A stretch of DNA of 64,000 nt from Nitrospiraceae bacterium (GTDB lineage Bacteria; Nitrospirota; Nitrospiria; Nitrospirales; Nitrospiraceae). The position numbers were made by a program, and so were the translations under genes. Location: NCBI GenBank assembly GCA_037442105.1, contig JBBIQV010000006.1, positions 1 through 64,000 on the forward strand, read 5' to 3'. How positions within the stretch are numbered: position 1 is the first letter of the stretch; every line of letters starts with the position of its first letter. Under the pieces are notes generated by a model. The model was not told where the DNA came from. It did no database searches and was given only the letters and a program-made list of their open reading frames with translations. Shown here piece after piece: positions 50,791-61,417 of the stretch.

Positions 50791-51114
50791 TCAGCCCTCG
50801 CTCTTGATCTCTTCCATCTCTCCTTCGATTTTTTCCCGCTGCTCCCGCAAGACCTGGACTTGTTTGGCCAGTCGTCCGATCTCCATATCAGACAAGACGC
50901 GTTCGGCCGGCTCGCCCCGCTCATGCAACTCGATAGCCCGCTCGCCGATGTCGCGAGAGAGATCGCTGACCCGTTGATCCAGCTTCCGCATCTCCAGGCG
51001 GAGTTTCAATAGCTCGGTTTCTTCCAGCGCTCGATTCGCGGCTTGCGCCGTGCCATGCCGCAACGTCGCCCAACCCGCTTTCAAATCATGTTTCAGCCGC
51101 TGTATCAGTCCCAT
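50791..51114 (-). CDS. Hypothetical coiled-coil protein
   Basis: 107-aa helical ORF coupled to ppx. Confidence 0.75.
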   Translation of the reverse strand: MGLIQRLKHDLKAGWATLRHGTAQAANRALEETELLKLRLEMRKLDQRVSDLSRDIGERAIELHERGEPAERVLSDMEIGRLAKQVQVLREQREKIEGEMEEIKSEG

Positions 51115-51142
51115 ATCTTTCCTGCGAGCACTCTACTTTTTC

Positions 51143-51235
51143 GGAGGGGGCTGAACCGAGCCCCATTGCGCGCGTCGAACGACCACTTTCCGAAGCGGGG
51201 GTTCCGCGAGCACCGGGATCAGTCCAGCCCCCTCC
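51143..51235. repeat. 93-nt structured dispersed element, copy 1
   Basis: Terminal IR GGAGGGGGCTG/CAGCCCCCTCC; core matches 60809-60860 at 42/52. Confidence 0.8.
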
Positions 51236-53802
51236 TAGCTCACCGATCCCAAATCCAACTTCGCCTGCCACCGGCGGAGCATGGCAGCTTTCAACGTCCG
51301 GTGTTGCGGCACGGCCAGCAGCGGGTCCTGCTTGAGCAGGGCAGAAGCCTCTTGCCTCGCCTGCTGCAGTAAGTCCGCATCGCGGATCAAATTGGCCGCT
51401 CGAAATTCCGGCATCCCCCATTGCCGGAACCCAAAGAACTCTCCTGGCCCCCTAATCCGCAGGTCGGCTTCCGCAATCACAAAACCATCGTTCGATTTGA
51501 CCAAGGCCTCCAGCCGTTGTCGCGCCAGCGACGCTGAGGCGAGCATGCTATCACTCGCGTTCGCTCGTTGCACGGTGCGGCCGCCGGTCCTCGATGAAAG
51601 CAGGAGGCAATACGACTGCTGCGCGCCTCGCCCCACTCGCCCGCGCAATTGATGGAGTTGCGCAAGTCCGAACCGCTCCGCATGTTCCACCACCATGACC
51701 GACGCGTTCGGCACATCCATCCCTACTTCGATGATCGTCGTCGCCACCAGCACGTTGATTTTGCCCGCTTTGAACGCGGCCATCGTCCGCTCTTTCTCCA
51801 CCGAGCGCAGACGCCCATGGAGAAGCCCCACCGTGACGTGTCGGAATTCCTCCTGCCGGAGGCGTTCCGCCGCTTGGATCGCAGCCTGCAGATCGGTTTT
51901 CTCCGACTCCTCCACGAGCGGATACACGATGAAGGCCTGGCATCCGGCCTCCACATGATCCTTGACGATCCGATACGCACGGCAGCGTTGTGACTCGGCG
52001 AAGAGCAGAGTCTTCACCGGCTTCCGTCCCGGCGGCAATGCGTCGATCATCGACACGTCGAGGTCGCCGTAGACCGTCATGGCCAACGTCCTGGGAATCG
52101 GCGTGGCGGTGAGCACAAGAACGTCCGGCCTGTAGCCCTTGTCGATGAGACTTTTCCGTTGCAAGACCCCGAAGCGATGTTGCTCATCGATGACCGCCAG
52201 CCCCAGCTTGGCGAACTTCACGCCTCTCTGAATGAGCGCATGCGTCCCGATCACCACCTGTATCTGACCCGTTTCGATCTTCGTAAGCAGGACCACACGT
52301 TGCCTAGCTCCTCCGCTGCCCGTCAGTACCGCGACCGACAAACCCAGTTGTTCGAGGAAACCTCGCAGGGTATAGCCATGCTGCTCCGCCAGAATCTCCG
52401 TCGGCGCCATCAAGGCAGCCTGATACCCGGAGCCGCAGGCCATCACGATCGCATGAAGCGCAACGACGGTTTTGCCGGAGCCCACGTCACCCTGAATAAG
52501 GCGATTCATGGGCCGGTGACTCGCCATATCCTGCCGAATCTCCATCCATGCTCGCTCTTGCGCAGTGGTCAACCTGAACGGCAAGGCCTTGCCCAACCGC
52601 GCCAGCAAAGACGTGGCGGGATCAAATTGAATCCCCTTCACCTCGCATTTGACTGCCCGCTGACGACTTGCCAAAGCCACCTGTAGAAGGAACAGCTCCT
52701 CGAACGCCAACCGCCGATGAGCCGCTGTGACGCCTCGATCAAGCGCGGCGAGATCGGTTCCGGCAACGGGGAAATGTACCTCGGCCACCGCCTGTTGAAT
52801 GGGACACAGGTGATACTTCGCCCTTACCTGAACCGGTAGGGCTTCTTCGAGACCGGGGAGATATTCCTCGATCAGGTCTTTGACGAGCACGCGCATCTGG
52901 CGCGAGGTCCATCCCTTCGTTTCGTGATAAATCGGCACGATGCGTCCTACATGCACGGTGCCATCTGTTTCCTCGCCCAACACTTCGTACTGATCGACGT
53001 CCATCCGGAGTTCCATCCAACCGCCCCGACCGGCGAGCACCCGTCCCGCCAACATGATGCGCGACCCGACGGCTAATACCTTTTCAAGGTACGGCTGGTT
53101 AAAGAACACGGCTTGGAGGCGGCCGGTCCGGTCTTGCACGGTCACCTCCAATACCGTCAGCCGTTTGTACCTCGCGCCACGGAGCTGACTCGCCACGATG
53201 ACGCCGCAAACGGTCGCCTCCCCACCAGGAACGACACGGGCGATGGGGGTGATCACCGAACGGTCTTCGTAGCGCCAGGGTAGGCACCAGAACGCATCTT
53301 CAACGGTCTTCACGCCCAGTCGCTCCAGCAATGCCGCTCGTTTGGGCCCGACTCCTTTGGCATACCGAATCGCAAGGGTTTTCACATCCAGCGAAGCCTG
53401 CAGGTGGCCCACCGATTTGGGCGTCCGCCGGCCCGGCTTGACTTGTCCCTCTTTCGGAGTGTCCTCAAGAGAGCCGGCGCGCAGGCTCGCGAGAATCATG
53501 CGAGCCCGGGCAAGCCGGCGCAACTGCTCGGCAGGAGACAAACCCGCGTGAAAGTCGACGAACAACTGGCGAAGATCGAGCAGGCGGCCTTCAACCAGAG
53601 GAGAATACACGCCGGCCGACAGTGCCTCGATAATTTGTGACGAGATGAACGGTCCGAGATTTTTGATCGAAGAGAGATGCGACCCCTGATCCCGTAAGGC
53701 AAAGTCGATCGGGCGCTCGACCCGTTGCAAGAAATCATGCAACGGTCGCACAAGCGGTGTCGCACTGGATTGTGTCGAAGGCGAGGTGAATCGGATGGTC
53801 AT
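51235..53802 (-). CDS. recG: ATP-dependent DNA helicase RecG
   Basis: QGDVGSGKT, MAPTEILAEQH, IDEQHRFG, TATPIPR, QLHQLRGRVGRG. Confidence 0.97.
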   Translation of the reverse strand: MTIRFTSPSTQSSATPLVRPLHDFLQRVERPIDFALRDQGSHLSSIKNLGPFISSQIIEALSAGVYSPLVEGRLLDLRQLFVDFHAGLSPAEQLRRLARARMILASLRAGSLEDTPKEGQVKPGRRTPKSVGHLQASLDVKTLAIRYAKGVGPKRAALLERLGVKTVEDAFWCLPWRYEDRSVITPIARVVPGGEATVCGVIVASQLRGARYKRLTVLEVTVQDRTGRLQAVFFNQPYLEKVLAVGSRIMLAGRVLAGRGGWMELRMDVDQYEVLGEETDGTVHVGRIVPIYHETKGWTSRQMRVLVKDLIEEYLPGLEEALPVQVRAKYHLCPIQQAVAEVHFPVAGTDLAALDRGVTAAHRRLAFEELFLLQVALASRQRAVKCEVKGIQFDPATSLLARLGKALPFRLTTAQERAWMEIRQDMASHRPMNRLIQGDVGSGKTVVALHAIVMACGSGYQAALMAPTEILAEQHGYTLRGFLEQLGLSVAVLTGSGGARQRVVLLTKIETGQIQVVIGTHALIQRGVKFAKLGLAVIDEQHRFGVLQRKSLIDKGYRPDVLVLTATPIPRTLAMTVYGDLDVSMIDALPPGRKPVKTLLFAESQRCRAYRIVKDHVEAGCQAFIVYPLVEESEKTDLQAAIQAAERLRQEEFRHVTVGLLHGRLRSVEKERTMAAFKAGKINVLVATTIIEVGMDVPNASVMVVEHAERFGLAQLHQLRGRVGRGAQQSYCLLLSSRTGGRTVQRANASDSMLASASLARQRLEALVKSNDGFVIAEADLRIRGPGEFFGFRQWGMPEFRAANLIRDADLLQQARQEASALLKQDPLLAVPQHRTLKAAMLRRWQAKLDLGSVS

Positions 53803-53927
53803 GGGAAGCCGCAGCGGACAGGATGCACAGCCATGCGCGCCATTGCCCTATCGATCACGGTCGTCGCGCATCGTAGCATAGGCATCCCCCCCTCACAATG
53901 ACGCGTCCCATCGTCGTGAATCAGACT

Positions 53928-53987
53928 AGCGAACAGCCGATAGTCAGCAGCGAGTAGCTCAAAACCATTTGCTCTCAGTTATTCGCT
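53928..53987. repeat. Heptamer hairpin, homologue of the 45409 element
   Basis: 52/60 identical ungapped to 45409-45468. Confidence 0.8.
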
Positions 53988-54051
53988 TCTTGGCGATCGC
54001 AGCAGAACTGCTCATGAATAATGCACGCTAGGGTGGTACAGGTTACAATGC

Positions 54052-55518
54052 GTGGTGGAGTATCCAATGTATCGACGAAACATCTTCTATATCTTGAGCT
54101 ACTTAGCGGCCGGTGTTGGTCTGTTCATCCTGTACCACGCGTGGATCAAACCCACCTTTTTTCAGCCCGCGCCGATTCCCCCGTCGACTACGGTCGAAAC
54201 AGAGGATGAGCAGACCGGCACGGATCGGAACCGCGAGGAGGAATTACGTTTGGCTGAATCGAAGCAGGCCCGCATTATTGAATCGGGTCCGGCTCCAATG
54301 TCGCCGCATGTCACGACGCTGGAGAGCCTCCGTGACGAATTGGAGAAAGGCCACGCATCAGAGGTCGAATCGAGACTGACCAACCTCTCTCCGACAATGC
54401 TGGCCGAGCCACAAGTTCGGCGATATGTGGCCGTCCTCTGGAACAACCTCGGCATTCTCCAAGAACAAACAGGCGGCACCGCCGTCTCGGTCAAGGCTTT
54501 CAAAAAAGCCGTGTCCCTCGATCCAAGCAACCCGGTCGCGCACTTGAACCTTGCTCACGCCTTTTGGGCACTTCGAGATCCGGAACTCACGGAGGAGTTC
54601 CTGCACAAGGTGATACAGCTTGTGCCGGCTGAGGCTTTCCCCCACCTGGCAATGGCAGACCTGCTGCAAGAGCGGGACAACCTTGCAGGAGCCGCGCTGC
54701 ACCTCGATCAAGCAGCAGAGCTCGCACAGCAAGACCCTGCTCTGCAATCCTACCTCCAAACGGTGTCGGCAAAGGTCCGTCACGCGGACAGAACTGAGCA
54801 GCGCCTTACCTCACGCGGGAACGCTCATTTCACCGTGAAGTTCGACGGTGAAGAAGATCGGGCGACCTGGACCAGAGTGCTGGATATTCTGGAAGAGGCC
54901 TATCGAGACATCGGGCAAAAGTTCGGGCATTTCCCCGGCAATCCGGTCGTCGTCGTCCTGCACACCCGAGAGAGTTTTCATAGCGCGACAGGAATCCCTA
55001 CGTGGGCGGACGGTCTCTTTGATCCTGTGCTGGGCCGGATTCACGTGCCGACGCAAGGGGCATTGACGGACCAGACCTGGCTCACCCGTGTCCTCCGGCA
55101 TGAGTACGTGCACGCCATCCTGCAGGATCAGTTAGGCATGGAAGCTGGATCGATTCCAACCTGGCTCAATGAAGGCCTGGCGATGCAATTGGCAGGAGAT
55201 CCCTGGGCGGACGTCGATCAACTGATACGAGCGGAAGTCGCGCTTGTTCCGCTCGCAACGCTGGAAGGGGGATGGGGCCACCTCTCAAGCGGAGCTGCCA
55301 GCGTCGCCTATCTTGAAGCCAGCTTCGCAACCCACTACCTGATCGACCGGTTCGGCATGGAGCACGTGAGGGATCTGTTGAAGGTGTTGAAGGCGAGTCG
55401 ATCTGTGCAGGAGGCAATGCAAGACCAGCTTTTCCTGACCTACGAGCAGTTCGACCGCCAGTGGGTGGACGATCTCAATGCGAAACTCAAGTCCGGGAAG
55501 TTACTCACGGCTCGTTAA
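54052..55518 (+). CDS. Membrane-anchored TPR + zinc metallopeptidase (MA-like) protein
   Basis: N-terminal TM, TPRs, HEYVH and WLNEGLA; start may be ATG 54067. Confidence 0.85.
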   Translation: MVEYPMYRRNIFYILSYLAAGVGLFILYHAWIKPTFFQPAPIPPSTTVETEDEQTGTDRNREEELRLAESKQARIIESGPAPMSPHVTTLESLRDELEKGHASEVESRLTNLSPTMLAEPQVRRYVAVLWNNLGILQEQTGGTAVSVKAFKKAVSLDPSNPVAHLNLAHAFWALRDPELTEEFLHKVIQLVPAEAFPHLAMADLLQERDNLAGAALHLDQAAELAQQDPALQSYLQTVSAKVRHADRTEQRLTSRGNAHFTVKFDGEEDRATWTRVLDILEEAYRDIGQKFGHFPGNPVVVVLHTRESFHSATGIPTWADGLFDPVLGRIHVPTQGALTDQTWLTRVLRHEYVHAILQDQLGMEAGSIPTWLNEGLAMQLAGDPWADVDQLIRAEVALVPLATLEGGWGHLSSGAASVAYLEASFATHYLIDRFGMEHVRDLLKVLKASRSVQEAMQDQLFLTYEQFDRQWVDDLNAKLKSGKLLTAR

Positions 55519-55530
55519 CGAACCGGCACT

Positions 55531-56511
55531 TTACCAAGTCCTCAAAAAACTCTCCCGAAGTGGGCCATACTGAATCAACTCACGGCTGGATGAATTCTCT
55601 TCCTGGCGAGGCCACAATGGAAGGACACGCGCCTGGTCATCTTCCTGCTGAACGCTCTTCCCCACTTCCCGCAACGAATCGAAGGCATCTTGCCACATCA
55701 ATTCTCCACGCATCTCACTATAGGCAAGAATCGTGAAATCGAACGTGTGACGCAAGCCCGGCGTTGGAATCACCGTCCACCCGCGACCATGGACAATCCG
55801 CTCGACGCGAGCAATGCCACGACCCTCCGCCGCAAAGTGATCTTCCCAGATAAGCGCCCCGGATAAGGGATCTCGTGCTCGCAGGAGAAAGTAGGGTTGG
55901 ACTGACGACGGCTCCGGATTCGAGACTCGCATGACCGTCGCGCGAAGCCGCGCCACAGTTGCCACAGGACTCGCGGCCCCCTCTTGCCCTCCGGGATTCA
56001 GATTCAGTTGCCCTTGCCACAGAAACTTGCCGGTTGCCGCATCATACACGCGGAGCAGAAACTGGGAGAGCCCATTGGCGCCCACACCAATACCCCCGGC
56101 GAAGATGCGCTCTCGCACCGGTGTGGACGTCGGCGTCCCTTCCTCGTGCACATCGAGATCGTAGGACTCTTCAGTAAGCACCGTTCCACTGTTCGGATCG
56201 TAGGTTCTGATGAGGATAGTCGACGTTCCGGCTGCCTGGTAACCAAAGCCGGCCGCCACGACGGGCTGCTGGGTCTCGCGCGCCGTGAGTTTGGCCGTCC
56301 CATGCGATTGGGCGAGGCTCAACCGCCCAGGAAAGTCATAACCGGCTCCGAACGCGACGCTCGCCGTGAGCATAGTGCCGAGGCCAACAGCGATTCCCCA
56401 CCGGCATCTGTTTGATCGTTGGAGTCCCCTCGATGCTCGTGCCATGACGGTACGGGGGAGCGCCCATGGCCACCACCTCATCAGAGTCAACATCCATTGC
56501 CAGAGGTTCAT
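55531..56511 (-). CDS. Hypothetical, probably exported beta-rich protein
   Basis: AGGAGG RBS; hydrophobic segment; repeated YD..TG..LW motifs. Confidence 0.7.
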   Translation of the reverse strand: MNLWQWMLTLMRWWPWALPRTVMARASRGLQRSNRCRWGIAVGLGTMLTASVAFGAGYDFPGRLSLAQSHGTAKLTARETQQPVVAAGFGYQAAGTSTILIRTYDPNSGTVLTEESYDLDVHEEGTPTSTPVRERIFAGGIGVGANGLSQFLLRVYDAATGKFLWQGQLNLNPGGQEGAASPVATVARLRATVMRVSNPEPSSVQPYFLLRARDPLSGALIWEDHFAAEGRGIARVERIVHGRGWTVIPTPGLRHTFDFTILAYSEMRGELMWQDAFDSLREVGKSVQQEDDQARVLPLWPRQEENSSSRELIQYGPLRESFLRTW

Positions 56512-56677
56512 ACAGCTCCTCCTGTTGAGCGTTATTCTGCAGGTGGAGCCGTGTCACGGTAAATTCCACAGAGGTTCATAATCCCCCCCAAAAGGGGGAT
56601 GCGGCGATCGACGATCCGACCGATCAGGAACTTTCAAATGATGAGAACTGGCTATGGCAGGAAATGAAGTCAGTCTG

Positions 56678-57113
56678 TCAACGCAGGTGTGTAACCGCCC
56701 CGAACCAGCGATAGCGGTTCACCGGCTCACTTACCGGCGGACGAATCACAAGAACCTGCACGTCCGCGGGGAGATCGAGCCAGTGTGAGAAACAGACGTC
56801 CTCCAGGCAATCCGGGCAGGAGAGGAAGGAATGCCTCCAAGCCACGCTGAATTTTCCCATCCGGCTGGAGCAGAAACGCCGCTTCCGGCCGGCCTGGTTG
56901 ATACTCAGCCCCTAAACTGCGGGCCGCCTCCTCAGACTGATAGGGCACGAATCGCATGGACCGATCCAGGCCATCCCTACCCCATCGTTCCAGACCAGCC
57001 TTGGCCGTCATGCACAGGCGACAATCGCCGTCGTAGATGAGCAGGCGTTCCTGATTCCTTGAGACCTGATCTGCCATCGGATGACCTGCGAGTCTGCTCA
57101 TGTGGTCCATCAC
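56678..57113 (-). pseudogene. DCC1-like thiol-disulfide oxidoreductase (DUF393), apparently frameshifted near the 3' end
   Basis: YDGDCRLC motif; family-typical NRYRWFG lies in another frame beyond the stop at 56727. Confidence 0.65.
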
Positions 57114-57172
57114 TGTACTACCCCAAGCAAGCGACGGTTGCCGTCCGCGCGAGTCGCCGCTATAGTCGAAAC

Positions 57173-57589
57173 ATGATGCCCGTTCGGGTGCTCATCGGTA
57201 TTTTGCTCGCGATCGCCGCAGTAGCAGCATCCGCGCGAATCCTCGGTCTCCATCCTCCTTCCTCCTCTTCATCAGCCCAACTCCTGTGGCTGGCGTTCTT
57301 GTTCGGTATTCCCGGAGTACTGGCCGGGTGTCTCCTCGCACAGAAACGCTGGGCCCTAATGGGAGTGGTCATTTATGGGACCGTGGGGCTGGCGCTGGAT
57401 ATCTCGACGCTGGTGCTGGAGCTGAGAAGTTCGGATGGGCAGGTCTTGGTGCCGGTGCTCAGCGCACTCAGCGGCCTCTTGAATTTCCTGCTGATCATCT
57501 TCGGCGGGCGAGGGTTTCTCGCCTTGCCCCAGGACTCAATGCCTCCAACAGGCCGCCGTCCCAGTCCTCCATCCCCTTCCGCATCTTGA
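57173..57589 (+). CDS. Hypothetical membrane protein (about 4 TM)
   Basis: Four hydrophobic stretches. Confidence 0.7.
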   Translation: MMPVRVLIGILLAIAAVAASARILGLHPPSSSSSAQLLWLAFLFGIPGVLAGCLLAQKRWALMGVVIYGTVGLALDISTLVLELRSSDGQVLVPVLSALSGLLNFLLIIFGGRGFLALPQDSMPPTGRRPSPPSPSAS

Positions 57590-58538
57590 TCGGTCGTATC
57601 CGTTGGAATCCCGCCTCCCGCAGCCATCGCATTGTGTCCGCCAGCGAATAGGTGTTGCCGGTCTCGGTGAACAACAACATCGTCACGGCAAACAAACCGG
57701 CTTCTTGAGGATAGAGTCCCTCTCGATCATGAAGAAACGCATCCTGCAAGATCAGTCGTCCACCGGGATTGAGCGCCGGCAACGCGCGGCGGAAAAGGGC
57801 TTGGTTTTCCTCCGGCGAATAGATGTGCAGGACGTTCGAATACCAGATGACGTCGTACCGGCCGATGATCGGCTCCTGCATGAAGTCCAGCGGTTGATAC
57901 GACAGCCGGTGGCCGGCCTTGTGCGTGGCCGCGATCTTCTTCGCGACTTCCAAAGCCGCCGGTCGATCACACACCGTCGCCCGCAACTGCGGATTCTTCG
58001 CCAAGAAGGCCATGGCATAGGTGCCGGGCCCACCGCCAAGATCCAGGAGCGTTTTGGCGCCCTGCAGATTCACTTGTGCAGCAACTTGAGGCGCGACCTC
58101 CAACGACCGATGGTGCATCGCCCATGTGAACCGCTCGCGATAGCCCGGCTCCTCTGGTTCATCGTGGTCGACCGGAAGTCCTGTCTTCACGCTGTCGGTC
58201 AGACGAGACCAATCGGCCCAGTGGTTCCTGAGTAGATCGAGGTATGCACCGCGATGAGTCGGGCTGTTGGCATTCAAGGCGGTAGCGGCAAGCCTGCCAT
58301 TCCAGTAAGTGTCGCCCGATTTTCGCAACAGCCCGGCCGCAGCGAGATTGCGGCACAGAATCGCCAACCCTCGCTCGCTGACCTTGAGTGCGGCCGCCAG
58401 TTCACCGACCCGCCATTTTTTAGAGCCGATCGCGGTGAACAAGTCGAGTTCCAACGCGGTGATCAGAACCCGCGGCAATCGATAGGCCATAACGGCATCG
58501 CGAAACTCTTCAAAGGTGGCGATCTTTGGCGTCATCAT
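57495..58538 (-). CDS. SAM-dependent O-methyltransferase (dimerisation + methyltransferase domains)
   Basis: TALELDLF, LLDLGGGPG, SNVLH, LNPGG. Confidence 0.9.
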   Translation of the reverse strand: MMTPKIATFEEFRDAVMAYRLPRVLITALELDLFTAIGSKKWRVGELAAALKVSERGLAILCRNLAAAGLLRKSGDTYWNGRLAATALNANSPTHRGAYLDLLRNHWADWSRLTDSVKTGLPVDHDEPEEPGYRERFTWAMHHRSLEVAPQVAAQVNLQGAKTLLDLGGGPGTYAMAFLAKNPQLRATVCDRPAALEVAKKIAATHKAGHRLSYQPLDFMQEPIIGRYDVIWYSNVLHIYSPEENQALFRRALPALNPGGRLILQDAFLHDREGLYPQEAGLFAVTMLLFTETGNTYSLADTMRWLREAGFQRIRPIKMRKGMEDWDGGLLEALSPGARRETLARRR

Positions 58539-58570
58539 CCTGCCATCCTTCTCCATCCCGCCCACTGAAC

Positions 58571-58610
58571 GAGAGGTCGTGCGGGGCCGGCCGGCCCCAC
58601 ACGACCTCTC
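58571..58610. repeat. 40-bp near-perfect palindrome
   Basis: GAGAGGTCGTGCGGGGCCGG|CCGGCCCCACACGACCTCTC, one mismatch. Confidence 0.85.
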
Positions 58611-59043
58611 ATCGAATCTTCTCGACGCACCACCGCATCAGGTTTTTTACTTCCTCCAGATTTCCCAAATCCACAGTCTTTCTGAAAATCACCGCCACAT
58701 ACTCCTCATTCATTTCCGCTTGCTCCTCGAACCCCGCCTTCACTAACGCCGGACGGTACTTCGACACGGCCGGCTGGAGGAAATATTTGGCCTGCTTCGC
58801 CAACTCGTCCGTCCCGATGTCTTCGGTTGTGCCGTCGGAAGTAAGACTTTTCACATCATCCATCGCGATGCCGTTCTGACAAGCCAATGTCCCGTCCGGC
58901 GTAATTTCCAACATCCAGCCGTCGCGCTCCAACTCCATCGCCAAAGCCCCGCCGGGCTCCAATTCGTAGAGCGCGGGCAGGGCGGCGCACAACTGGGATC
59001 GAACATGAGTCCAGGATGCCTTAGAAAGGAGCGGGGCGCTCAT
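58609..59043 (-). CDS. Hypothetical protein
   Basis: 144-aa ORF, ATGA-coupled to the TPR gene. Confidence 0.75.
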   Translation of the reverse strand: MSAPLLSKASWTHVRSQLCAALPALYELEPGGALAMELERDGWMLEITPDGTLACQNGIAMDDVKSLTSDGTTEDIGTDELAKQAKYFLQPAVSKYRPALVKAGFEEQAEMNEEYVAVIFRKTVDLGNLEEVKNLMRWCVEKIR

Positions 59044-59867
59044 GCATGGCTCCCGCGAAAAGGGGAAGTCTGTTTGGTCTCGACCGCCAAACGGGCCCGG
59101 AGCAATTCGAGCCGTTTGGCATTCTCTTCGAGTTTCGGCAACCGATACTTGCGATCCATATGGACCACTTGCTCCAACAGATCGACCGCTTCACGGATCT
59201 GGCCGAGTTCCTCATAGCACTGAGCGAGAAGATAGCGCGCTCCACCGACCCGCAGTTCATCGCGGGTCCGCTCCGCAATAGCCTGGCTCGTCTGGCAACA
59301 GGCCATGGCTTCGTCATACCGTTTCTGCGCGAGGAACGTGCGGCCCATCATCCGCCACGCATCGGCTACCCCATTTTGGTCGCCCAGCCGCCGCATGAGT
59401 ACGAGGGACTGCTCATAGTATTGCAGGGCTTCTTCAAACTGGCCGGTCTCTCGCGCGACCAGCCCGAGATCCGAGAAGAGCACTGCCTTGCCCGCCTCGT
59501 CATGCACCTTCGTCATGATATCGAGCGCTTCGAGGTAGTAGGCGCGAGCCCTGCTCCAGTCGCCCGCGTCGGCCCGAAGATTGCCCAAGTTCCCCAATGT
59601 CGTCCCGATGCCTTTCTCGTCGCCCAAAATCTTCTGGAGTTCGAGAACCTCCTGGTAGTGGTTCTGGGCTGCATCGCGGCGACCGCTCACCGCGCAGATG
59701 TTGCCGAGATTGCCGAGCGTCGCGGCCAGGGAGCGCCGGTCTCCGGATAGCCGATCACATTCGAGCGCCTTTGCATAGCAGGCGTAGGCATCAGTGTAAA
59801 ACCCGCGGGCGAAGTGCTCGTTGCCCTGACGATTCAGTTCTTCAGAAAGCCCCTTCCGCGTCGGCAT
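59040..59867 (-). CDS. Tetratricopeptide repeat protein
   Basis: Repeated LGNLG...A..YY..AL units. Confidence 0.9.
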   Translation of the reverse strand: MPTRKGLSEELNRQGNEHFARGFYTDAYACYAKALECDRLSGDRRSLAATLGNLGNICAVSGRRDAAQNHYQEVLELQKILGDEKGIGTTLGNLGNLRADAGDWSRARAYYLEALDIMTKVHDEAGKAVLFSDLGLVARETGQFEEALQYYEQSLVLMRRLGDQNGVADAWRMMGRTFLAQKRYDEAMACCQTSQAIAERTRDELRVGGARYLLAQCYEELGQIREAVDLLEQVVHMDRKYRLPKLEENAKRLELLRARLAVETKQTSPFRGSHA

Positions 59868-59876
59868 GGCGTGTTC

Positions 59877-60470
59877 CTACCGGAGCGCCTCCTCCACTGC
59901 CTGTTTCGCGCCCGCGAGGATCGATACTCCATCTCCAACGAGTATGGCGTCAAAGTCGTACTTGAGCAGCCGGCACAACCCCTCCTTCGCTTTCTCCCGA
60001 TCCGCATACTTGTCGGCCGGCAACAGGCTCAGCGACCCGGCAGGTTTGCCGATCAACGCATCGCCGACGATCAAAATCCCCTTTCCCTGTCGGAGGTAGA
60101 GGGCACATTCCCCAGATGACTTTTGATCTTTCACGTGCACCACCCATATCCCGCCGGGGAGTAGCTCGCCGTCCTTGAACGTCTTGGTCGGCTTTAGTTC
60201 CATCGACGGCGCATCCATGTCCGGCACTTGGAGCTGACACTTGAACTCGGCTTGATACGTTGCCGACTCTCGGGCATGGTCCCGATTCGTCACGACGATG
60301 TAATCGATCGGACCGCTTCGGCGAACGAATGCGGCGTCCTCCGCAGCCATCGGCGGTGGATCGATCAGAACTTTGTGCTCGCCCACAGTCAGAAACAGCC
60401 CGTTGAAGTCGAGCTGCTTCTCCTCAGAAAACCACGACCATTGCCACATGCCGGGAAGGATTTGCTTCAT
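59877..60470 (-). CDS. Metallo-beta-lactamase-fold protein with degenerate metal motif
   Basis: VLIDPP, VTNRDHAR, LIVGDAL, ILVGDG. Confidence 0.7.
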   Translation of the reverse strand: MKQILPGMWQWSWFSEEKQLDFNGLFLTVGEHKVLIDPPPMAAEDAAFVRRSGPIDYIVVTNRDHARESATYQAEFKCQLQVPDMDAPSMELKPTKTFKDGELLPGGIWVVHVKDQKSSGECALYLRQGKGILIVGDALIGKPAGSLSLLPADKYADREKAKEGLCRLLKYDFDAILVGDGVSILAGAKQAVEEALR

Positions 60471-60476
60471 CAAAAG

Positions 60477-60497
60477 AGCCGATAGCTAATAGCTGAT
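60477..60497. repeat. Short heptamer array
   Basis: AGCCGAT AGCTAAT AGCTGAT. Confidence 0.6.
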
Positions 60498-60510
60498 GGC
60501 ACAAACAGAC

Positions 60511-60750
60511 CTAAAGGGTTGCAACAGCGTCTTTCACGACTTTGGTAACTTTGGCAAGAATACTGGTTTCATTGGGCAGGTCGATGATGTCGTCTTCTGG
60601 TACCGTGATGAATTTGCGATTGGGGCCTTTCGTCAGAGAGATCAGGAACATGCTGTTCGACGGCGTGACCGGAATCACCACCTGCACAGTCCTGTCGATC
60701 CCCTTCACCAACTCCAAAAACTTTTGCTTCCCTTCCTCCACTTCATCCAT
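60511..60750 (-). CDS. Small hypothetical protein
   Basis: 79-aa ORF with GAGG RBS. Confidence 0.7.
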   Translation of the reverse strand: MDEVEEGKQKFLELVKGIDRTVQVVIPVTPSNSMFLISLTKGPNRKFITVPEDDIIDLPNETSILAKVTKVVKDAVATL

Positions 60751-60788
60751 GCTTGTCCCTCGTCCCTTTTACAGGTGGAATAGCTTCA

Positions 60789-60881
60789 CGGGGGCGGCCA
60801 GGCCGTCTCCCACTGCGCGCGTCGAGCGAGCGGTTTCTGAACCGCGGGCTCCGCGAGTACGGAGACGGCTGGCCGACCCCG
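60789..60881. repeat. 93-nt structured dispersed element, copy 2
   Basis: Terminal IR CGGGGGCGGCCAGGCCGTCTCC/GGAGACGGCTGGCCGACCCCG; shared core with copy 1. Confidence 0.8.
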
Positions 60882-60886
60882 CTTAC

Positions 60887-61417
60887 CTACATCTTGTTCG
60901 CGCCACCCAGCAGCTTTTCCACCTCAGCCACAATCACGTCCGCTCCCGCCAAATCCATATTTCCGACCCGCTGCCACCGTATCACGCCGTTCTGATCGAT
61001 CACGTAGACGTTGGGGATGAACTTCCCACCCCCGTACAGCTTGTCCGTAACCTTGCCGGGATCGAGCAGGTAGGGATATGTGACCTTCACGGGAAATGCC
61101 GAGAGAAATTCGCCGACATCCCGCTTCGAGTTGCCGGCAGAGTTGACACCGATAACGGCGACATCCCTCCCCTTGGTCGCTTCGTACACCTTCTGCAGGT
61201 TGGAGCCTTGCATCATGCAGGGATCGCAAATATGAAACAGCCCCAGCACGACGACCTTGCCCCTCAATGCGTCCAACGCTACGGTCTCTCCGGTGATCGA
61301 GGTCAACGTAAAGATCGGAGCCTTCTCCCCGACTTTGAAAAATCCCGCCGCCATGACGAGATGCGCCGCACAAACCGTGGCCGACAAGATGGACAACGCC
61401 ATGAGAATCCGTTTCAT
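60887..61417 (-). CDS. Exported TlpA/ResA-like thioredoxin-fold redoxin
   Basis: Signal peptide, GEKAPIFTL, CDPC, YVIDQNGVIR. Confidence 0.85.
   Translation of the reverse strand: MKRILMALSILSATVCAAHLVMAAGFFKVGEKAPIFTLTSITGETVALDALRGKVVVLGLFHICDPCMMQGSNLQKVYEATKGRDVAVIGVNSAGNSKRDVGEFLSAFPVKVTYPYLLDPGKVTDKLYGGGKFIPNVYVIDQNGVIRWQRVGNMDLAGADVIVAEVEKLLGGANKM

Follow-up and report, generated by a model that had tools for sequence, protein, structure and literature searches.

The 64,000-nt window analysed here, from the genome of a Nitrospiraceae bacterium (2.8 Mb, 87% complete; gene calls by our own gene caller), carries two copies of a hairpin repeat, at 51143..51235 (copy 1) and 60789..60881 (copy 2), both on the + strand, which for copy 1 is the strand opposite the host mRNA. 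Judged by comparison with related genomes, this repeat appears to behave as mobile DNA, because orthologous sites are found filled, empty, replaced or nested. We propose, with moderate confidence, that it is a selfish REP/REPIN-like repeat, and that an unlinked enzyme recognises and moves it in the form of one folded DNA strand, that opposite the mRNA; and, as it is likely selfish DNA of this kind, its paired base changes would by themselves be no proof of RNA function. The architecture is best read as an ‘inside-out’ version of the REP/REPIN plan, possibly reused as an mRNA hairpin in the manner of TRIT or Correia elements.

An earlier note on this DNA had described the two copies as a 93-nt element, on one strand and each following the stop of a minus-strand gene. 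Coordinates and strand both checked out and the copies are real, but they are only two of about 50 members of a family: an iterated profile has 57 matches in the genome and none in the reversed genome, of which 48 are full copies and nine are partial (of the latter, one is interrupted by an N gap and three are complete copies that carry the same ~58-nt branched insert within their loop). The equal length of 93 nt is a coincidence, as full copies with a stem of at least 15 bp span 81-128 nt. An exact pattern occurs in 98/120 Nitrospiraceae genomes, at 0 to 87 copies each (backward control, 0); model searches matched 13/14 Nitrospiraceae genomes and 0/106 other genomes of the phylum. We have named the family for the Nitrospiraceae because 79/80 titled GTDB loci are Nitrospira, Nitrospiraceae, Nitrospirales or Nitrospirota, the remaining one being a bacterium without further name. 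The exact pattern was absent from viral contigs, and copy 2 had no match to plasmids and phages. That the element is unannotated in Rfam proved correct at either threshold: the Rfam 15 covariance models gave no hit at gathering score in the 64 kb, and none of seven weak matches overlaps a copy. Our literature searches found no description of this repeat, which the supplements of PMC11109978 and PMC11602168 may list. This is an uncatalogued repeat family in globally important nitrifiers, lying within core operons for translation, ATP synthase and purine synthesis. One member of the high-copy genus, G130 (1.8 Mb, 99% complete), has only two pattern matches, against 48-87 in its nine congeners, and is without a copy at one shared site.

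Mobility, position and strand

Occupancy differs widely between relatives. The copy-2 site gives a profile match in 9/30 orthologous loci and, by eye, a short hairpin-free spacer in 12/30, while the recG site (that of copy 1) is filled in 5/30 loci and the pth site in 6/30. When 30 copies from G001, a genome of the same genus, were compared with this genome, 14 sites were filled, 11 were scored as empty and five had no orthologous gene pair. Thirteen filled pairs could be compared in sequence: seven share their arms and six, copy 2 among them, carry unrelated ones. Copy 1 has kept its arms relative to the G001 orthologue (22/26 identical on each side), with a core changed at seven positions. 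A new copy lies within the loop of an old one in G126 and is absent in G066 (93% identical genomes); a fourth genome, G130, lacks a copy that three congeners hold at the same site; and 9/16 spans of 121-400 nt contain one inner copy. In other genera, a minority of copies lie within a terminal-repeat MITE (a miniature transposable element of the inverted-repeat kind).

The placement of the repeat is equally particular. Of the 48 full copies, 40 lie between co-directional genes, 35 of them with their reverse strand as mRNA sense and five the other way round; five lie between divergent genes, one between convergent genes and two at contig ends; in relatives the orientation is 76:15 between co-directional genes, and convergent sites are commoner (39/159). 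The repeat starts within 15 nt of the stop codon in 30/35 copies, against 14.0 expected from an even placement that spares the ribosome site, and even in spacers of at least 100 nt, 11/15 copies lie within 22 nt of the stop. Host junctions include fusA|tuf, rplW|rplB, atpD|atpC, sucC|sucD, tldD|pmbA and purS|purQ; because copies sit within such core or obligate operons, we infer that the repeat is not a strong terminator in that orientation. Replication strand does not suffice to explain the orientation, which tracks transcription in either replication stratum (28:3 and 7:2, with the leading strand assigned from keto skew).

Strand asymmetry extends to the arms. Their mispairs, read on the non-mRNA strand, show a G.T:A.C ratio of 43:20 in this genome (p=0.005), 82:28 for G001 and 54:30 for G018 (the pooled ratio of 446:135 is inflated by shared arms), and a loose control set of other spacer hairpins has no bias (689:642). 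The usual excess of C-to-T change on the sense and leading strand would push the ratio the opposite way; such an excess was seen by eye in the one decayed copy. The non-mRNA strand also folds better as DNA in 40/46 copies. To this extent the earlier suggestion of a substrate for an HUH transposase retains its first half, in that the strand bias would fit single-stranded DNA (ssDNA) better than mRNA structure; its second half found no support, with copies at 0/44 Y1 loci (see below).

Two observations concern the neighbours of the repeat. Small genes of toxin-antitoxin type (Phd, BrnT, DUF6883) appear often to be flanked on both sides by copies or half copies, as at G000:C35:30150-32020 and at L036, L214, L221 and L316. 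At L185 (G001:C4:117258-120303), a small gene that we take to be ThiS-like appears, by eye, to read in frame from before the copy through the whole element, which would give it a C-terminal extension; its counterpart here has a newer, stop-bearing copy ahead of the remnant (by eye).

Anatomy, covariation and the origin of the arms

The whole repeat measures ~95 nt, of which ~46 nt form a conserved core; on the window + strand it consists of helices of 3, 4, 4 and 6 bp, separated in turn by a G.A mismatch, a TC bulge and a 2x2 purine-rich loop, and closed by a terminal loop that ranges from 4 to ~70 nt. The outer stem has a median of 22 bp, 91% Watson-Crick, and is perfect in 14/44 copies. Its sequence differs per locus, such that mean pairwise identity is 0.38 in the arms vs 0.80 in the core. 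Arm subfamilies do exist in other genera, where entire elements recur with near-identical arms, and such arms recur in relatives (185/308 copies). The label of MITE, also raised earlier, is unsupported for a repeat with no conserved terminal repeats and no target duplication: direct-repeat lengths at the ends resemble those of shuffled pairs, although these ends are defined by pairing only and a short target-site duplication could escape. At the 5' foot of 46 copies, on the two strands, the REP tag is found as GTAG 0 and 3 times, as GTGG 0 and 3 times and as CGTC 0 and 0 times; the attC end motifs RYYYAAC / GTTRRRY occur in 0/46 on either strand; and a U-tract follows the stem in 1/46 copies antisense and 3/46 sense.

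The 52-nt cores of the two window copies (51162-51213 and 60809-60860) are identical at 42/52 positions. Our alignment confirms that six of the ten differences amount to three base pairs changed on both sides (A-T to G-C once, C-G to G-C twice); the remainder comprise a base in the loop, a base without a partner, an A.C mismatch (copy 1) and a G.T wobble (copy 2). Across 37 standard-loop copies, 98.1% of cells are paired and 9/17 pairs have changed on both sides, with both-sided changes in 71 cells, where shuffles gave 16 and slid controls no more than 11; these figures lean upward, since the set was chosen by a pattern and a structure that both derive from the same copies. Paired alleles are mostly two-state, 13/21 site pairs show all four combinations and the 37 copies hold 24 haplotypes, which points to probable exchange among paralogous copies. 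The structure is real and conserved, as had been claimed, but to conclude from compensatory changes that an RNA structure is under selection goes too far, because alleles are shuffled among paralogues and because template switching can generate such changes in the absence of RNA selection (PMC8794818). The family clearly illustrates that a multicopy hairpin can covary strongly without necessarily being a functional RNA, a point that matters for screens for noncoding RNA.

Some arms match the DNA of their hosts. At guaA (G000:C5:11623) the stem takes in 10 nt of coding DNA plus the stop; G001 has the same peptide end in different codons, and the far arm matches the codons of this genome. At two G001 loci the far arm likewise matches coding sequence and stop codon, there across 6 and 7 nt. 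Chance would yield an estimated <0.05 such cases (for ~75 stop-adjacent copies in two genomes), and the matches suggest that the far arm was copied from the host at these three loci. In both species the near arm at pth falls within the coding tail and about half of the arm positions differ, yet pairing is full in each, a pattern for which independent replacement is an alternative. Template switching can give such arm patterns (PMC8794818), and the same picture would result if the far arm selected its target through base pairing. That all arms are copied from the target is unsupported: empty orthologous spacers are unlike the near arm, and arm subfamilies move intact in other genera. A far arm that seemed to track the stop codon at one locus of the G126/G066 series was dropped as a case, both arms having simply decayed. 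Arms that match the host, along with free shuffling of alleles, open a way to test how REP-like repeats lacking a linked transposase spread and keep their pairing.

Three side observations touch on the build of the family. Three copies carry the ~58-nt branched module in their loop, and a further match lies elsewhere (G000:C1:155553, C35:30245, C21:26645 and C45:7527), and the G001 orthologue of one such copy has a plain loop. A sister hairpin family built on the same plan, its arms variable, its core base similar and its inner part different, is found at these same stop-codon sites in other genomes (L019, L021, L210, L213, L433, L477, L479 and L484; also G000:C2), and is itself interrupted by the Nitrospiraceae repeat. 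Close to copy 1, at window 51122-51131 and 11 nt from it, ten bases match the core end; these are absent in the G001 orthologue and are possibly the remnant of an older copy.

Candidate mechanisms and rival explanations

Synthesising the above, we suggest that the invariant mismatch, bulge and internal loop form a putative protein-binding site, as in REP or attC hairpins. After landing, arm-to-arm template switching may maintain and extend the outer stem, and gene conversion may swap cores among copies, many of which would then be tolerated by the host, or retained, as an intercistronic hairpin. Docking at stop codons could arise via targeting, or via selection among insertions. We also considered a mobile hairpin of a new kind that needs no transposase, in which a fixed core lands behind stops, a host enzyme acts on the template strand, the far arm is copied from ~22 nt of neighbouring DNA and insertion is coupled to the end of translation; we regard this as doubtful. 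If the far arm were indeed copied, each locus would acquire its own perfect stem.

Several observations weigh against a selfish, mobile repeat acting as ssDNA. No mobilising enzyme was found among the families and flanking open reading frames (ORFs) scanned. In this genome, 0/46 copies have an arm at least 90% like that of another, and therefore there has been no recent burst. One of the 11 ‘empty’ sites is a decayed copy, and at G130 too an ‘empty’ site may reflect loss and not a pre-insertion state. An RNA role would also explain an orientation that follows transcription in both replication strata. The mispair bias weakens in subsets, to 31:19 in co-directional copies and to 7:6 among six old copies when one-sided changes are counted, and in copy 1 itself the mRNA strand folds better (-64.6 vs -52.7 kcal/mol). 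Finally, of seven copies shared with G001, six differ at none or one of 38 core bases where fourfold sites differ by 40%, and the arm pairs of six shared copies are unchanged in 102 cases, changed on one side in 16 and on both sides in two. This suggests that some copies may be kept by the host, and it fits host selection as well as conversion; the comparison covers copies with similar arms only, which biases it toward conservation, and the spacer DNA adjoining shared copies is by eye also conserved, such that the conservation of the arms is unspecific.

The search for an enzyme covered several families. A copy lies within ~1.5 kb of 0/44 Y1 loci (a subset of the Y1 matches that includes all three of this genome), and on this count linkage to Y1/RAYT was rejected; copy number is unrelated to the presence of Y1 (p=0.32). 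The check for nearby transposases that the earlier note had advised thus brought up no linked HUH enzyme, and PF01797 has no match in 10/22 high-copy genomes. G018 (58 copies, 99% complete) has no Y1, reverse transcriptase, IntI or IS110 match. Reverse transcriptase was set aside, with no match in 2/5 genomes tested; IS110 matched in 0/5 genomes, as did the IS91-type Y2, for which the controls were silent too, so that this result carries no information. IntI is above the cut-off in 2/5 genomes (this genome and G001) and in none of three high-copy genomes. Integron integrase genes or fragments do occur at five places within ~1.5 kb of a copy, and two of these places are orthologous (G000:C1:171388 and C35:32169; G001:C10, C11 and C31); given the three high-copy genomes without IntI, this proximity is read as incidental. 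Among 131 proteins scanned between or beside copies (43 + 88, being the accessory and recurrent ones from 361 flanking ORFs plus four window proteins) there is one DDE transposase, ~365 nt from a copy and judged unrelated. No gene cargo, and no autonomous insertion sequence with the same ends, was found between paired left and right halves among 692 left halves, save one 5.2-kb pairing, which we read as two copies of a common arm type.

Chief among the alternatives is a host-selected intercistronic RNA element, the stem of which would be cut by RNase III or block exonucleases and so tune cistron ratios, a role proposed for TRIT and Correia repeats, with spread by gene conversion secondary. We think this possible, if on the unlikely side. 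Such an element would account for the proximity to stop codons, in long spacers as well, for the orientation here (35:5) and in relatives, and for the presence of copies within core operons; the stem has a median of 22 bp and the genome has an RNase III gene; the shared copies are conserved against the fourfold divergence; and a two-site pattern of 3' ends at TRIT has been read as RNase III cleavage (PMC13714241). Were RNA processing to prove true, the repeat would be a portable part for operon tuning. Against this, wobble pairs favour the opposite strand, most relatives are without the repeat at any given site, and replacement and nesting are unexpected for a tuned regulatory site; the conserved neighbouring spacer (by eye) and the selection of shared copies by similar arms also blunt the argument from conservation. 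A dedicated small RNA, made from the antisense strand or excised from the mRNA and acting in trans or titrating a protein, seems to us very improbable: it would suit the strong covariation, and the G.A mismatches and G.U wobble on the antisense strand, but there is no promoter-like or terminator-like site at either window copy, copies are polymorphic and nested, and the flanks are gene ends.

Two further readings start from known kinds of element. The repeat could be a passive module of a terminal-inverted-repeat MITE moved by an insertion-sequence transposase, free copies being remnants, and in 6/37 G018 copies and 12/111 copies of the GTDB scan the core does sit within an element with ~15-bp terminal repeats, the termini of which are often flanked by TAG or CTA. 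As 0/43 copies here, 0/32 in G001 and 0/107 metagenome copies lie inside such an element, as no target duplication rises above chance, and as loop-nested insertions, among them one new bare insertion (G126 vs G066), are without such termini, we hold this to be improbable. A non-canonical intrinsic terminator or an attC-like integron site is the reading to which we give least credence; the location after stop codons, IntI here and in G001, and integrases near copies at five places speak for it, but U-tracts are rare on both strands, the attC end motifs are absent, only 1/48 copies lies between convergent genes, copies lie inside obligate operons and three high-copy genomes have no IntI above the cut-off.

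On the traits examined, the Nitrospiraceae repeat does not qualify as a member of the REP-RAYT systems, the terminal-inverted-repeat MITEs, the attC sites or the intrinsic terminators. attC sites lie directly after the stop in a fixed orientation, are folded from the template strand, and have unpaired bases and a variable terminal loop; the repeat shares the post-stop position, fixed orientation, unpaired bases and variable loop and, on the reading proposed here, the folded template strand, but is without RYYYAAC/GTTRRRY ends, and its host genes are not cassettes but housekeeping genes in conserved synteny. ERIC and other hairpin MITEs are, like Correia elements, ~100 nt long, non-coding and found near gene ends, and MITEs of the Correia/ERIC type have conserved terminal repeats and a TA duplication, whereas in the Nitrospiraceae repeat it is the termini that vary, and no duplication was seen. 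The ~100-nt, non-coding Correia element (CREE) near gene ends resembles the repeat further in its long RNA stem (PMC13714241). TRIT of Mycobacterium is likewise a lineage-restricted multicopy hairpin in a narrow stop-codon position, with no U-tract role shown and a possible RNase III substrate; it is mostly bidirectional and centred near -8 (PMC3152330; PMC13714241), whereas the Nitrospiraceae repeat is directional and longer, has locus-specific arms, and is replaced and nested (a comparison made by description).

With REP/BIME/REPIN elements and their RAYT (TnpA-REP) Y1 HUH transposases, as described in PMC6006769 and PMC3733652, the repeat has in common that these are lineage-specific intergenic imperfect palindromes 3' of ORFs, clustered, variable in copy number and with conserved mispairs; REP-type repeats can persist without their transposase. 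It differs in having no GT[AG]G or CGTC tag at the foot of the stem and no REPtron that we could find, in being inside-out, with the conserved core inside and the variable stem outside, and in holding one orientation relative to the gene, with copies rare between convergent genes in this genome. Hairpin maintenance by template switching would explain multi-base compensatory changes and one-step extension of a stem into flanking DNA (PMC8794818); it is a mutation process, not an element, and leaves the spread and the conserved core mispairs unexplained.

The two window copies and neighbouring sequences

A covariance model search of the window returned copies 1 and 2 only. In copy 1 the conserved core (51167..51212, + strand) has the full set of features listed above, with a 4-nt terminal loop, and is flanked by the outer arm distal to the stop codon (51143..51164, + strand) and the arm adjoining it (51214..51235, + strand), which are locus-specific in sequence and form a 21-bp stem with 18 Watson-Crick pairs. 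The final base of the latter is the G of the recG stop (TAG), the 1 nt that copy 1 shares with its upstream host gene recG (51235..53751, - strand; start codon from our own gene caller). Downstream lies an ORF of 107 amino acids without a Pfam match (50791..51114, - strand), followed by a Ppx/GppA gene. Copy 2, with its core at 60814..60859 (+ strand), begins ~5 nt past the stop of a gene of AhpC/redoxin type (60887..61417, - strand), named from the Pfam match of its G018 orthologue; its downstream host ORF (60511..60750, - strand) encodes 79 amino acids, without a Pfam match and conserved across the 30 loci compared. All four strands of the two copies fold beyond their shuffles (RNA z -4.65 to -6.80; 0/200 shuffles equal), and neither copy has a terminator-type U-tract, in agreement with what had been noted before.

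Runs X2 and X3, which may be a single data set, have DNA contigs that cross both copies with no indel listed, and contigs of run X1 end at copy 2. At window 60858, X2 and X3 have C where the window has T; C is the usual family base and pairs with G. Elsewhere, at window 56718-56770, X2 and X3 differ from the window by dense substitutions and small indels, and the X1 contigs break there. The window also holds, at 53910-54032, a second repeat family, a hairpin of heptamer repeats whose terminal motif is conserved; the stretch itself gives 36 BLAST matches, there are 85 occurrences of the motif in the genome, and the family looks like a modular terminal-repeat MITE.

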